IMG/VR virus record: IMGVR_UViG_3300031419_000013
Location: 1 to 64,000 of that record
DNA from: a virus
Strand: one strand, 5' to 3'
Length of the DNA: 64,000 bases
Of the stretch, positions 4,684-58,486 are shown in pieces. Position numbers and translations under genes: made by a program. Position 1 is the first letter of the stretch; each line of letters begins with the position of its first letter. The notes under the pieces are model-generated. The model worked only from the letters and a program-made list of their open reading frames with translations. It ran no database searches and was not told the origin of the DNA.

Positions 4684-5121
4684 TTGGTAAAATTTGAACC
4701 TCTGAAAATAGCTATGGATTATGATGAAACCTTTAACGCTGATAAACAGATGTGGGCTACCATCATAAAGTTCATGATTGCTAATGGATGCGATGTAAGA
4801 TTCGTAACTTTTAGACATGAGTATCCTGCTACTTTCTCTAATGAAGATATTCTTCAAGACTCTGACAAATTAAACATCCCTATTATCTTCTGTGAAGGGG
4901 TTCAGAAAAGAGCTGTCACTGAGAGAAAAGGATTTAATCCTGATATTTGGATTGATGATAGTCCAGAGTTTATTCCTAATGAAGTTGAGTTAAGTAATCA
5001 ACTTTTACATATTCATAAAAAGGAAAGAAATCCTGTTGTTCCTAACAGTCAACTTACTGCAACTACTGTGACATCTTCTGTTTCTTCTTATCCAGAGGAA
5101 ACTTTAGTTATTCCTCGATAA
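4684..5121 (+). CDS. HAD-superfamily phosphatase/nucleotidase-like protein
   Basis: N-terminal DxDxT motif (IAMDYDET); TTG start per track, start uncertain. Confidence 0.5.
   Translation: MVKFEPLKIAMDYDETFNADKQMWATIIKFMIANGCDVRFVTFRHEYPATFSNEDILQDSDKLNIPIIFCEGVQKRAVTERKGFNPDIWIDDSPEFIPNEVELSNQLLHIHKKERNPVVPNSQLTATTVTSSVSSYPEETLVIPR
5061..5072 (+). promoter_or_regulatory. conserved phage motif variant (AACTACTGTGAC-A)
   Basis: 12-nt core inside the 3' end of the HAD-like ORF, 200 nt upstream of the SSB gene. Confidence 0.4.
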
Positions 5122-6021: not shown

Positions 6022-6423
6022 ATGATAATAGAGGCTGCCATTATGGTGGCCTTTTTCTTTTTAGGAATAGTCATTATGTTTAACAGATGTTCTTTCTGTA
6101 AGCGTTTATATGTTTTCCAAATCTCTTGCTTTAGTTGTGAAGATAATCACAGACGTAAGAAGATTGAAGAAGACAACCTCCGAAAGTATTATGCACATCA
6201 TTTTAAAAGGATAGCCGATATGAATAACACAGCAACAGCAGCACGTCGTCGTGAAGAAGAAGCTCGTCGTCGTAATCGTAACAGCAGTTCTATCCCGACT
6301 TCTAATTCAGTGTTAGACGGTACAGTGTATACTGGATACAATAACAGCTACTCAGATAGCTCTTCCGATAATTGTAGTCCCTCTGATTCCTCTAGCTCGC
6401 CTTCTAGCTCATGTGATTTCTAA
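6022..6423 (+). CDS. membrane protein with Cys cluster and Ser-rich tail
   Basis: N-terminal TM AAIMVAFFFLGIVIMF; CSFCKR...CFSCEDNH; Ser-rich C-terminus. Confidence 0.5.
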   Translation: MIIEAAIMVAFFFLGIVIMFNRCSFCKRLYVFQISCFSCEDNHRRKKIEEDNLRKYYAHHFKRIADMNNTATAARRREEEARRRNRNSSSIPTSNSVLDGTVYTGYNNSYSDSSSDNCSPSDSSSSPSSSCDF

Positions 6424-6425
6424 TT

Positions 6426-6629
6426 ATGAGTAATAGCCTCCAAAGTCAACTAGCCTTTGCTAAGAATCGAATTCGTCTCTTACAAGACGCACTCTATGAA
6501 TATCAGAGGGAGTGTCACAGGGCTACTAATAAAAAGTTGGATGAACAGTTAGAAATTAATCAGATGTTAACTGAGTATGTTATTCAATTGGAGGATGAAC
6601 TGGATGCAATTAAACAGCGCAACAGTTGA
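6426..6629 (+). CDS. hypothetical coiled-coil protein (67 aa)
   Basis: ORF track. Confidence 0.5.
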   Translation: MSNSLQSQLAFAKNRIRLLQDALYEYQRECHRATNKKLDEQLEINQMLTEYVIQLEDELDAIKQRNS

Positions 6630-6972
6630 TAGAGTTCTTTATCTTACAATGTTCTTAGTTGCTGTTGGTATTGGTTATTACATTAAAGGTCTTGTTATTG
6701 ATAAAGATGCTTTAGCGCAAGAGAAGATCTCACAGCAGATTGCACAGAGACAAGATGAAGCAGCTAATAAAGTTGCCACCAAGGTTCTTGATAATCTTAG
6801 TGCTTGGAAACAAAACACACGGGATGTAGTTAAGGAGATGCACTTTGAAACAACTAATCCGGTTTTCGTTAATGTCTGTGCTACTGATAACTATGTCAGC
6901 TTGTTCAATCAACGGCAGCAGCAAGCAAGAAAGGCTCTTGCCGGTGAACTTGAAAGAAAAGTGCAGGATTGA
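6604..6972 (+). CDS. i-spanin (Rz-like)
   Basis: N-terminal TM VLYLTMFLVAVGIGYYI then coiled coil; GGAGG 9 nt upstream of ATG 6604; contains overlapped lipoprotein ORF. Confidence 0.6.
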   Translation: MQLNSATVDRVLYLTMFLVAVGIGYYIKGLVIDKDALAQEKISQQIAQRQDEAANKVATKVLDNLSAWKQNTRDVVKEMHFETTNPVFVNVCATDNYVSLFNQRQQQARKALAGELERKVQD

Positions 6973-7105
6973 TGTTCCCGATTTAAGCGGTCCAAGAGGA
7001 GTTGACTTAACCCTCGTAAACGACTGGTATCAAGAAGAATACACTGAGTGTGCTGCTAATCATAATGGATTAATTGACGCTCTAAGTGAGCGAGGTATTA
7101 ACTAA
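6845..7105 (+). CDS. o-spanin (Rz1-like lipoprotein), overlapped architecture
   Basis: Signal MKQLIRFSLMSVLLITMSAC with lipobox Cys; begins inside and extends past the Rz-like ORF in another frame; TTG start (alt ATG 6872). Confidence 0.6.
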   Translation: MKQLIRFSLMSVLLITMSACSINGSSKQERLLPVNLKEKCRIDVPDLSGPRGVDLTLVNDWYQEEYTECAANHNGLIDALSERGIN

Positions 7106-7338
7106 TGGCAATTAAGTTTACTAAACATCAGCCAAAGTCTGGAACATTTTCAGTGGTCTGGGAGTTTGAAGGTCAAGTTTGGTCCAGTACTTTTAGCAAT
7201 AGAAAAGGATTATGGTACAAATATTATAGTAGTGATAGTGGTGATTCTTGGACTCATATTGAAAGTCCAGATCATAATATCCCTTCTAGTAACCCAAAAG
7301 TTACAGGTATTAAATATGCAGTTATCCGAGAAGGGTGA
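7105..7338 (+). CDS. hypothetical protein (77 aa)
   Basis: ORF track; ATG overlaps upstream stop. Confidence 0.5.
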   Translation: MAIKFTKHQPKSGTFSVVWEFEGQVWSSTFSNRKGLWYKYYSSDSGDSWTHIESPDHNIPSSNPKVTGIKYAVIREG

Positions 7339-7645
7339 TGTATTAAACTTCTATAAGCTTGGATGTAGAGTACCGAAAGGGGCAATCTATATTGGTCGCC
7401 CTAATTATAAGTGGGGTTTGAAGGGTTCTAAGTTTCAGAATCCTTATAGCCTTGAGAAGTACACCAGAGAAAAGGCGATTGAGAAATACAAGAACTGGCT
7501 CTGGAATGAAATTAAAATAGGTCATATAACAATTCAAGAACTTGCCAACATGAAAGGCAGAGATTTGGTTTGTTATTGTAGTCCTCAAGAATGTCATGGA
7601 GACGTTCTGTTAAAAGCTATCGAATGGGCTGATAGTAAAGTTTAA
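7316..7645 (+). CDS. DUF4326-like protein
   Basis: GRPNYKWG...FQNPY...YKNWL...DLVCYCSPQECHGDVLL pattern; start moved to ATG 7316. Confidence 0.5.
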   Translation: MQLSEKGDVLNFYKLGCRVPKGAIYIGRPNYKWGLKGSKFQNPYSLEKYTREKAIEKYKNWLWNEIKIGHITIQELANMKGRDLVCYCSPQECHGDVLLKAIEWADSKV

Positions 7646-7656
7646 AAGGAATTAAA

Positions 7657-7827
7657 ATGTTCTTAGTGTTTGCTGGACAAGATAATAGTCTTGGTGGTTG
7701 GAAAGATTTTATAGAGTCTTTTAATAATGAAGAACTTTCTATTTCTTATGCCAATAGGCTTCTTTCTCAATACGATTGGTCACATGTAGTTGAATTAGAA
7801 ACTGGCAAAATTATCTGGAAAAGTTAA
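7657..7827 (+). CDS. hypothetical protein (56 aa)
   Basis: ORF below track cutoff found by reading; fills gap between flanking genes. Confidence 0.4.
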   Translation: MFLVFAGQDNSLGGWKDFIESFNNEELSISYANRLLSQYDWSHVVELETGKIIWKS

Positions 7828-55009: not shown

Positions 55010-55045
55010 GCCCCTGCCAGAAATGGTGGGGGCTTTTTTCGTTTT
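55010..55045 (+). terminator. rho-independent terminator
   Basis: GCCCC...GGGGC followed by TTTTTTCGTTTT. Confidence 0.75.
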
Positions 55046-57107: not shown

Positions 57108-57340
57108 TGGAAATTCTTCGTAGAGATAAGACTGTAAAGTTCAGCACTCTTATGGGCGGTACAGTGTTTCTGGCTCATGGTGATATTCCATACCTAAAGC
57201 TGACTAATCCTGTGGTTCTGAAACATGAGCCAGATCGTGAATTCACTGCGGTTCATCTTGGTATGTCTGCAATGGCAGCAGTAACACCAGACACTGAGTG
57301 TGTTCCGTTAATAGGTCGTTTTGTTGAGGATGCAAAATGA
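57107..57340 (+). CDS. hypothetical protein (77 aa)
   Basis: ORF track. Confidence 0.5.
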   Translation: MEILRRDKTVKFSTLMGGTVFLAHGDIPYLKLTNPVVLKHEPDREFTAVHLGMSAMAAVTPDTECVPLIGRFVEDAK

Positions 57341-57567
57341 AAGTTGAATTGAATAAAGAAGATGTTATTCCCCTGTCCCATATTGCGCAGGGAGACTGCT
57401 TTGTCTTCAATAACGGTAGCACGTACATGAGGATTCGTAACCCTTTTCACCACAATTCTCAAGAAGAGCGTGTAGACGTGGTAAATCTCACCAGTGGCGA
57501 AGCTACTTCGTTTAAATCAGATTCTCCTGTAGTTCCTGTAAAGATTACTGCGGTAGAAACCAAATAA
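57337..57567 (+). CDS. hypothetical protein (76 aa)
   Basis: ORF track. Confidence 0.5.
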   Translation: MKVELNKEDVIPLSHIAQGDCFVFNNGSTYMRIRNPFHHNSQEERVDVVNLTSGEATSFKSDSPVVPVKITAVETK

Positions 57568-57709
57568 GTGGACGGGAGTTGTAAACCCAGTTCCACTACC
57601 CTAGCAGTAAGATGCGTGGCTATCAACCACACCCTCGCTGTAGTGTTCAGTGCATCGAACTGCTAAGCCTTCCTGTTTTCGGTCAGGGTATCAAAACCGT
57701 TCAAATTCC

Positions 57710-57781
57710 GGGCGTTCTGGCATGAGCCTCTGACTTGTAACTCAAGTTATGCCATGGGTTCAAATCCCATGACGTCCACCA
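57710..57781 (+). ncRNA. 72-nt tRNA-like RNA with alanine identity set (G3:U70, A73, CCA) and a non-canonical D/anticodon region
   Basis: Acceptor GGGCGTT/GACGTCC, canonical T-arm ATGGG-TTCAAAT-CCCAT, A-CCA end; interior GGC-ATGA-GCC and GACTT-GTAACTC-AAGTT. Confidence 0.45.
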
Positions 57782-58041
57782 AACGCGGCGCAGTGATGTG
57801 TGTCTAGCGGAGTTGTTCTCCGTGAGGAGCCTTTCATCAAGGCAAACGAACTACATTAGCCGGTATTAGGTTAACGTGACGTGGCACGAATGAGGATGGG
57901 GTGGAGGAGCAATTCTGTGAAGCCACTACCCTCAACCATACTAATTCAAACAATGGGATGAAAACGTGCAGTTAGTAGAGTTGGATAACACCTATCGAAA
58001 GCAAGCGCCGAAGTAGTCCCACCCAATCTTTAGAGGTGGTT

Positions 58042-58152
58042 ATGCCACTAATTAAAATAATCATAGGCATACCTATACTCGCTGTATTGTATGGCGCAGT
58101 AGTGATGATGTGCCCTGCTTTCTGGCCTTTATGGTCCTACGTGTTTAATTAG
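58042..58152 (+). CDS. hydrophobic micro-protein (36 aa)
   Basis: GAGGTGG RBS; MPLIKIIIGIPILAVLYGAVVMMCPAFWPLWSYVFN. Confidence 0.35.
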   Translation: MPLIKIIIGIPILAVLYGAVVMMCPAFWPLWSYVFN

Positions 58153-58161
58153 AGGTTAGCT

Positions 58162-58356
58162 GTGTCTAATAAACCAACTAGAGCTATTTGTATTTTTCCT
58201 TTTACTCTTGAAGTAACAGAGAGAGCTGGGAATCTCTACAGGTTTTCTGTTGCAACTGGAACTATCGCAGATCTTAAAGATGGTAAATGGAAAATCTGGT
58301 GTGGTGATGTATCAGATAAAATGAAACAGTATTTCAGACCATTACCAGAATGGTGA
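58162..58356 (+). CDS. hypothetical protein (64 aa)
   Basis: ORF track (GTG start). Confidence 0.45.
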   Translation: MSNKPTRAICIFPFTLEVTERAGNLYRFSVATGTIADLKDGKWKIWCGDVSDKMKQYFRPLPEW

Positions 58357-58486
58357 TGAAGTAATCGGTACTCGTGTTAAGTTAGTGTAAATGTACAAAA
58401 GTTATAACAAGAAATTAATTTCCTCTGTTATCCACCCGTAACTACCACAGACAATTGGATTGTCGCTAACCGAAAAGGTAATCTAC

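Follow-up and report, generated by a model that had tools for sequence, protein, structure and literature searches.

A probable non-decoding tRNA-like gene cassette with alanine-type ends in a probable non-coding extension of a phage tRNA island

In phage T4, species 1 and 2 (rnaC/rnaD) are small structured RNAs located among the tRNA genes, co-transcribed and released by the tRNA processing machinery. Transcripts are punctuated by tRNAs in the T4 clusters and in mitochondria, and by mascRNA in the case of MALAT1. These systems, together with tRNA-Ala and its minihelices, transfer-messenger RNA (tmRNA) and the bacterial Y RNA YrlA, are the closest described ones to a 72-nt tRNA-like element, here named M5 (57710-57781, + strand), found in the non-coding tract 57568-58041 of a 64,000-nt stretch of viral DNA from the IMG/VR record IMGVR_UViG_3300031419_000013 (the window, to which all coordinates refer unless a contig is named). 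In bacteria the alanine determinants are A73, G2-C71, G3·U70, G4-C69 and G20, with G3·U70 as the major one (PMC9976931), and minihelices carrying G3·U70 are charged by alanyl-tRNA synthetase (AlaRS; Francklyn and Schimmel 1989, as cited in PMC9976931). In YrlA (PMC4201824), the T arm, a closed acceptor hairpin and the D arm make up a permuted tRNA-like module that is combined with a Ro-binding stem, and rsr lies nearby. M5 belongs to a known kind of element, the phage tRNA-like genes, but is a non-standard member; on balance it is probably a tRNA-derived, non-decoding tRNA-like gene cassette in a non-coding extension of the phage tRNA island. The original prediction thus holds in part, both in what it observed and in how it read the observation.

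The acceptor and T-arm half of M5 has all the features of a canonical tRNA. A 7-bp acceptor is formed by GGGCGTT (57710-57716) and GACGTCC (57771-57777), including the pairs G3·U70 and U7·G66; the discriminator A73 is at 57778, followed by an encoded CCA at 57779-57781, and the T arm ATGGG-TTCAAAT-CCCAT has a 5-bp stem and a loop of the UUCRANY type; the acceptor with G3·U70, A73, CCA and the T arm are as described in the original prediction. The D region is a 3-bp stub without GG (GGC-ATGA-GCC), and the arm GACTT-GTAACTC-AAGTT has the predicted pyrimidine at position 37, a U, and also G32, so that neither a canonical D arm with G18G19 nor a 7-nt anticodon loop with Y32, U33 and R37 is present. 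Pairing of G32 with C38 extends the stem of the 'anticodon' arm to 7 bp (UGACUUG/CAAGUUA) with a 5-nt loop (UAACU), the alternative being a 5-bp stem with the 7-nt loop GUAACUC. Because the arm can close in this way, decoding by M5 is unlikely.

The 64-kb window was scanned for a 7-bp acceptor combined with a 5-bp T stem, TTCRANN and NCCA. Nine matches were found, all on the + strand, compared with none in 200 Markov simulations; eight of them correspond to six tRNA genes called by ARAGORN and Rfam (one matched twice) and to an uncalled tRNA-like gene at 51298, and the ninth is M5. M5 is on the strand of all the called tRNAs; on the opposite strand, its G·U pairs would become C·A mismatches. 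A 76-nt fold spanning the element has z = -3.9, and the cloverleaf with the T arm lies within 0.5-2.7 kcal/mol of the minimum free energy (MFE). The encoded CCA and the ACCA-AA junction match those of the true tRNAs of the phage. Paralogy was considered and rejected, with no convincing similarity between M5 and the phage's own tRNAs, the tRNA-Cys of sister phages or the 'tRNA-Ala' of Kuttervirus EP75. An exact 26-mer search of IMG/VR for further copies of M5 gave no match, nor did a search of the same database with the neighbouring 184-aa protein.

M5 shares G1-C72, G2-C71, G3·U70, A73 and the encoded CCA with bacterial tRNA-Ala and alanine minihelices, and its continuous acceptor/T-arm stack is the part of tRNA-Ala that is read by AlaRS (PMC9976931). 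It had been credited with the full AlaRS identity set; three of the five determinants are there (G3·U70, A73 and G2-C71), but G4-C69 and G20 are absent. M5 also differs from tRNA-Ala in its 3-bp D stub without G18G19, in having no alanine anticodon, in its loop GUAACUC (G32, U37), which can be closed to 5 nt, and in failing the tRNA covariance model. Since G3·U70, A73 and G2-C71 are present, M5 is a plausible AlaRS substrate, and alanine charging of the released RNA is plausible if the RNA is made.

Sister-phage contigs, retrieved via neighbouring proteins and labelled here with L-numbers, carry different combinations of units at this locus. In the window, block A (57568-57708) is followed by M5 and by blocks C and D. 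L027 has A, M5, M2, M3 and a tRNA-Cys; L024 has A, M1, M3, a YrlA-like unit, C and D; L050 has A, M1, M2, M3, a YrlA-like unit, C, an open reading frame (ORF) and D; L049 has A, a DUF7566 gene, M1, M3, a tRNA-Cys and D; and L031 has M3, a tRNA-Cys and D. In L033-L039, the AAA gene is directly followed by the block A motif, in part or in full. M5 is absent from L024, L049, L050 and L031. M1, of 118 nt, contains a T arm and ...CCCCGACCA, and M2, of 80 nt, has the acceptor GAGGGU/ACCCUC (in the L050 fold) and AACCA. A T arm, an ACCA end or both occur in other cassettes too; most of the cassettes end in ACCA and are swapped between genomes that are nearly identical. The junctions between cassettes fall at ...ACCA(AA), which is how the true tRNAs of the phage end. 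In Aeromonas phage LAh_8 (L042), a tRNA-like sequence ending in CCA (4707-4787) was found directly after the homologous AAA ATPase gene, with a DUF2828 protein gene (6205-7701) 1.4 kb downstream of it.

Searches with models of known RNAs left M5 outside the standard classes. ARAGORN called no tRNA in the tract, and no tmRNA or tag peptide in the window, and the Rfam tRNA model (RF00005) gave M5 16.0 bits against a gathering score of 29. YrlA (RF02553) had no match in the tract at E up to 10, no other Rfam family matched it, and the 30 window ORFs scanned include no TROVE (Ro/Rsr) protein. A Y RNA identity was therefore rejected, as M5 is not permuted, has no YrlA match and is not accompanied by a Ro gene among the scanned ORFs. 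M5 is comparable to YrlA as a tRNA mimic outside decoding, and a YrlA-like permuted module occupies the equivalent slot in L024 and L050; in contrast to YrlA (PMC4201824), M5 has an open acceptor with CCA and no Ro-binding stem or GNCGAA motif. The YrlA-like unit (L024 6097-6172, L050 2405-2480) is circularly permuted, with a T arm, a closed acceptor hairpin, a D arm and an 8-bp closing stem. In L024 it gives a partial match to Rfam YrlA (22.5 bits vs 69), and between the two contigs it shows a compensatory C-G to U-A change (UAUGCC/GGCAUA vs UAUGUC/GACAUA). With mascRNA, M5 could share the role of a tRNA-like fold with a degenerate anticodon region acting as an RNase P or 3'-end signal within a longer transcript, but mascRNA is eukaryotic and has no sequence relation to M5 (weak model match, 11.9 bits). 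The units of the tract likewise have no sequence relation to T4 species 1 and 2 or to sub-threshold phage tRNA genes, and, in contrast to species 1 and 2, they are arranged as a hypervariable array of cassettes that lies apart from the main tRNA cluster.

The tract is flanked by a 76-aa ORF and, on the other side, by small ORFs that precede phoH, in a part of the window where all genes from 41 kb onward are on the + strand. No promoter-like or terminator-like site was found in its interior before 58029, and the last + strand terminator is at 55010-55033, which suggests that it is probably part of a polycistronic transcript. In the explanation we favour, the tract would be co-transcribed with the flanking + strand genes and would consist of cassettes for small structured RNAs, with recombination between them at the ...ACCA(AA) ends; we infer that these cassettes are derived from or mimic tRNAs and are processed by the tRNA machinery, M5 being the most tRNA-like of them. 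M5 appears to have kept the half of the tRNA that is read by processing and charging enzymes (the 12-bp acceptor/T-arm stack, the T loop, A73 and CCA) and to have lost the normal D arm and anticodon loop, and is probably processed like a tRNA. RNase P would cut its 5' end, and 3' trimming would halt at the encoded CCA, which would release a small stable RNA and punctuate the polycistronic transcript. The released RNA may be alanylated and should not decode. Should M5 indeed be processed and alanylated, it would represent an alanine minihelix-type RNA that occurs naturally, and on its own, in a virus, and would offer a direct handle on the role of non-decoding charged tRNA mimics. Phage tRNA islands are usually annotated only by the calls of tRNA finders, and this locus shows that sub-threshold tRNA-derived RNAs can adjoin the called tRNAs and turn over fast between near-identical genomes.

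Several observations weigh against this explanation. The window, L026 and L027 are the only known sources of M5, and the copies are nearly identical, differing by a single substitution (A49G, with the pair kept as G·U), so that they allow no covariation test. The thermodynamic ensemble gives the T arm a probability of only ~20%. C4-G69 stands in place of G4-C69, and the D region has no equivalent of G20. The shared blocks of the window and L024 are 99.3% and 97.2% identical, and the figure is 97.6% for the genes downstream and 90.7% for those upstream. The tract does not exceed its neighbouring genes in conservation (97-99% vs 97.6% downstream), a level that reflects recency and no demonstrable purifying selection on the cassette. 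M5 is dispensable, as it is replaced in sister genomes.

The alternative that survives best, although we consider it rather unlikely, is that M5 is a decaying pseudo-tRNA, a neutral and functionless remnant of a former tRNA gene in a recombination-prone region, whose alanine-like ends are a coincidence or a relic. It stays alive because M5 is dispensable in the sister genomes and shows no excess conservation. The Rfam tRNA score of just 16 bits without an ARAGORN call, the degenerate D arm and anticodon loop, and the apparent truncation of the neighbouring unit at 57891-57938 are in line with it. However, random decay would hit both halves of the molecule, whereas the 12 bp of the acceptor and T stem have no mismatch and the T loop, discriminator and CCA are perfect. 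The only substitution observed is pair-preserving, and the fold z of about -4 also speaks against neutral decay.

Other alternatives would give the array a role of its own. It is unlikely, but conceivable, that the locus represents an undescribed class in phages, a hypervariable array of non-decoding tRNA mimics acting as decoys or modulators of tRNA-binding enzymes of the host or of defences that target tRNAs, in which the 72-nt RNA is charged with alanine without decoding. Such a class, equally unlikely in this form, would comprise the Ala-type minihelix RNA, YrlA-like permuted modules and ACCA-ended minihelices, anchored by a three-way-junction RNA common to Ackermannviridae and 7-11-like podophages. 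Phage tRNAs are known to counter tRNA-cleaving defences. M5 could correspondingly be a functional tRNA mimic in the conflict with the host, either chargeable with alanine or uncharged, that serves as a decoy or inhibitor of host tRNA-targeting defences or tRNA-binding enzymes, with the fast cassette turnover mirroring an arms race; we regard both the role and the arms race as improbable. What keeps a decoy or counter-defence function alive is the rapid turnover, the other tRNA mimics nearby and the ProQ/FinO RNA-binding protein encoded by the phage. Between genomes whose flanking genes are 91-98% identical, the set of cassettes is hypervariable, the mimics in the array include the YrlA-like permuted module with its compensatory change, and a non-decoding design with intact enzyme-recognition surfaces suits a decoy. 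The case is nevertheless one of architecture and turnover alone. The window ORFs scanned include no nuclease-related or repair genes, and no defence or target was identified.

M5 had originally been read as a tmRNA-related RNA, charged with alanine and bound by SmpB, that either formed a tRNA-like domain by itself or belonged to a 214-nt tmRNA-like fold. M5 does share with the tmRNA tRNA-like domain (RF00023) an alanine-type acceptor with GGG...UCCACCA ends and G3·U70 (as also in tRNA-Ala), the T arm, ACCA, a reduced D region and a helix replacing the anticodon arm. The Rfam tmRNA model gave 16.3 bits (E 2.9e-5 in a 111-nt search), far under its gathering score of 47, and the permuted tmRNA model 8.8 bits. 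Only the M5 acceptor with G3·U70, the T arm and ACCA are aligned with high posterior probability, while the alignment lacks 308 positions of the model together with the D-loop analogue and flags the pairs of P2 as non-standard. The L027 copy of M5 gives the same picture. In contrast to tmRNA (~360 nt), the 72-nt M5 has no mRNA-like domain, resume codon, tag frame or pseudoknots PK1-PK4; ARAGORN makes no call, although it called E. coli ssrA as a tmRNA in the control, and no SmpB-like Pfam match was found among the 30 window ORFs scanned. The resemblance of GACGGGAGTTG-TAAACCCA, 140 nt upstream of M5, to the ssrA segment GACGGGATTTGCGAAACCCA is real at 17 of 20 positions, but its local alignment score was reached by 10 of 300 shuffles and the stretch is not conserved, and the proposed likeness to the 5' end of ssrA is limited to TTCTGG. 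GTGGACG and CGTCCAC are complementary, as claimed, but the tract holds four such 7-nt pairs against ~6.8 in random sequences of its composition, and the 214-nt fold built on them is not conserved, since L024, L049 and L050 retain the 5' partner without the 3' CGTCCAC. An ordinary tRNA or a protein gene at the position of M5 in relatives had been named as evidence against the proposal; the position is taken there by tRNA-Cys or a protein gene in some cases and by tRNA-like units in others. A tmRNA relation is thus highly improbable and largely refuted by anatomy: ARAGORN and both tmRNA models at permissive thresholds align generic ends only, and M5 is not a tmRNA, with no relation to it beyond its generic tRNA-Ala-like ends.

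The best-supported RNA in the tract, and its strongest functional signal, lies upstream of M5 in a three-way-junction/AGCCU-hairpin motif (57604-57699) that is independently conserved and apparently undescribed. The three-way junction (57604-57663, + strand), identified by conservation, folds and a covariance model, consists of an outer P1 (57604-57608/57659-57663) and an inner P1 (57611-57615/57652-57656), a P2 GUGG/CCAC (57616-57619/57627-57630) with the loop CUAUCAA (57620-57626), a junction strand ACCCUC and a P3 GCUG/CAGU (57637-57640/57648-57651). Across copies P1 varies from 5 to 17 bp, P2 has 3-4 bp and P3 is a variable hairpin, followed by AGCCU and another hairpin; the P2 loop is invariant, except for UUAUCAA in one copy. 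Its G·U pairs assign the RNA to the + strand.

The 46 nt at 57607-57652 have matches of at least 87% in 115 Ackermannviridae genomes, inside their ORF-free tRNA region; the Kuttervirus match is 87% over the 46 nt. Further copies were taken from L033-L037 and from phages Vi01, MK-13, HMGUkp5, PhaxI and Bue1, and independent single-sequence MFE folds give the junction in most lineages. With hand-anchored helices, 98.3% of the alignment cells are paired and 10 of 11 pairs have changed on both sides, a result obtained in none of 500 shuffles and lost when the helices were slid as controls. A covariance model built from only four sequences (L033, L034, L036 and L037) recovered the window copy (57607-57660) at 44.6 bits (E 7e-11), Vi01 at 43.2 bits, PhaxI and HMGUkp5 at 33 bits and MK-13 at 14.5 bits; the motif is single-copy per genome, and the model found no other copy in the 64-kb window. 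In the model alignment, which is fitted to the model structure and so favours pairing, 96.4% of the cells are paired and 10 of 16 pairs have changed on both sides (0/500 shuffles). RNAalifold on MAFFT alignments recovered P3 only, because the length of P2 varies by one pair between subfamilies, a difference that the covariance model resolved.

The second part of the motif (57666-57699, + strand) starts with an invariant AGCCU and is supported by covariation of its hairpin S1 (CCUG/CAGG, 57672-57675/57684-57687), which appears as CCUG/CAGG, CCAG/CUGG, UCAG/CUGA, CGUAGA/UCUACG and CGUUU/GAACG. This part is 94-97% identical among the matches listed, which are Ackermannviridae phages of Salmonella, Escherichia, Klebsiella and Erwinia. 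An H-type pseudoknot after AGCCU is tentatively proposed between the loop CGGU (57680-57683) and ACCG (57696-57699); it is possible in all three sequence types, with a weak helix (shuffle P = 0.31, 0.04 and 0.15).

The context of the motif varies: copies follow an ORF stop, precede a ribosome-binding site or tRNA-like units, or lie deep in non-coding DNA, so that the motif is no cis-regulator of any single gene. An Rfam search with the motif gave no match, and readings as an rrn boxA-like element, a riboswitch or a known ribozyme were set aside on these two grounds. The motif pattern had no match in the JGI metagenomes; its sole match among GTDB genomes, in a Sporosarcina chromosomal contig, has surroundings without the other features of the motif and was taken as chance. 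The motif is therefore a well-supported candidate for a new RNA family, backed by covariation and common to two phage families, and its occurrence in well-studied Ackermannviridae (Vi01, PhaxI and Ag3/MK-13) makes it experimentally tractable at once.

Kuttervirus genomes (Vi01, L001 753-3150, and homologues) have a hairpin-rich, ORF-free region of 2.4-4 kb upstream of the tRNAs, in which long perfect hairpins and a 67-nt tRNA-like unit accompany the three-way-junction motif. This unit (L002 1389-1455, the 'putative tRNA-Ala' of EP75) has U3·G70 and ends in ACA. In Klebsiella phage HMGUkp5 (L045 531-745), a match to Rfam STnc100, a prophage-associated small RNA family (54 bits vs gathering score 47), starts immediately 3' of the AGCCU hairpin, and a partial match is present in Shigella phage MK-13 (L044 600-709).

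The absence of coding potential noted in the original prediction was borne out, the largest ORF in the tract having 38 aa; coding was rejected on the small size of the ORFs, the rearrangement of the region in relatives and the compensatory nature of the stem substitutions. The tract had been described as structured; its 474 nt as a whole are not unusually stable (z = -1.0 for the + strand, -0.5 for the - strand). All its units are on the + strand. At its 5' end, sequence and MFE fold give a hairpin GUGGA-C-GGG...CCC-AG-UUCCAC followed by UACCCUA (57568-57603), which resembles a partial copy of the 3' half of a minihelix-like unit, X2, at 57891-57938 (common GUGG...CCACUACCCU). This partial copy accounts for the 10-mer CCACTACCCT, which is indeed repeated at 57593 and 57923, although a 10-mer repeat arises in ~10% of simulations. 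X2, defined by sequence and relatives, ends in CCCUCA-ACCA and is related to the longer tRNA-like unit M2 of L027, L050 and L036. Between M5 and X2 lies a spacer block (57782-57890; sequence and MFE fold) with the hairpin GGCGCA/UGUGUC (57787-57804) and the two tight hairpins that had been described, CGGAG/CUCCG (57808-57822) and GCCUU/AAGGC (57829-57843). The hairpin at 57787-57804 shows a one-sided G·U to A-U change in L024 and L050, consistent with pairing, and the one at 57808-57822 a non-compensated change in L024. In a 70-nt element (57955-58024), recognized from relatives, GGGAU/GUCCC forms the closing stem, after which comes A-CCC. The element is 95-99% identical in related contigs, lies 3' of tRNA-Cys in L031, L049 and L050, has a U·G to U-A change in the closing stem in L050, and has an ordinary fold energy (z = -0.6).

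No close relative of the window was found among deposited phages. Over 57300-58400 it is 100% identical, in the compared stretch, to a 90-kb ENA metagenome contig (ERZ27247421) and to a Logan contig. Its portal protein is of the SU10 type and its AAA ATPase is 42-44% identical to homologues in Salmonella phage SE131 (Moazamivirus) and Aeromonas phage LAh_8, which makes it an uncultured phage of ~90 kb related to the group of Salmonella phages 7-11 and SE131. A 117-aa ORF at 47656-48009 (+), 10 kb upstream of the RNA array, has a ProQ/FinO RNA-chaperone domain (PF04352, 49.6 bits vs a cut-off of 27) and is predicted to encode a structured-RNA-binding protein.

At 50.5-54 kb, ARAGORN calls eight tRNAs and Rfam likewise eight. 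Unusual anticodon loops occur in two genes of this main cluster, a tRNA at 50509-50586 (+) with an undetermined two-base anticodon ('ga') in ARAGORN and an 86-nt tRNA-Phe at 52524-52609 (+) with the ARAGORN anticodon AAA. Just 5' of the latter, the region 52377-52441 (+), which overlaps a 75-aa ORF, is weakly matched in local alignments by the permuted tmRNA model (18.1 bits) and by positions 84-140 of the tmRNA model (14 bits). The uncalled tRNA-like gene at 51298-51370 (+) lies directly after tRNA-Gln, has a perfect acceptor, a T arm and GCCA, and reaches 28.6 bits with the Rfam tRNA model (gathering score 29), having been missed by ARAGORN. In the spacer between tRNA-Tyr and tRNA-Arg (50758-50836, +), the segments GCCGGAUA and UAUCCGGC are complementary and lie ~50 nt from each other. 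The spacer ends in AAACAAU, which stands 5' of tRNA-Arg and is found again 5' of the 51298 tRNA-like gene and of the 57955 element. Compared with L024 and L031, the window carries 330 bp of inserted sequence (58028-58358) between the 70-nt element and the phoH leader; the insertion contains ORFs of 38 aa and 64 aa, and a homologue of the 64-aa ORF is present in L033, right after the three-way-junction motif.

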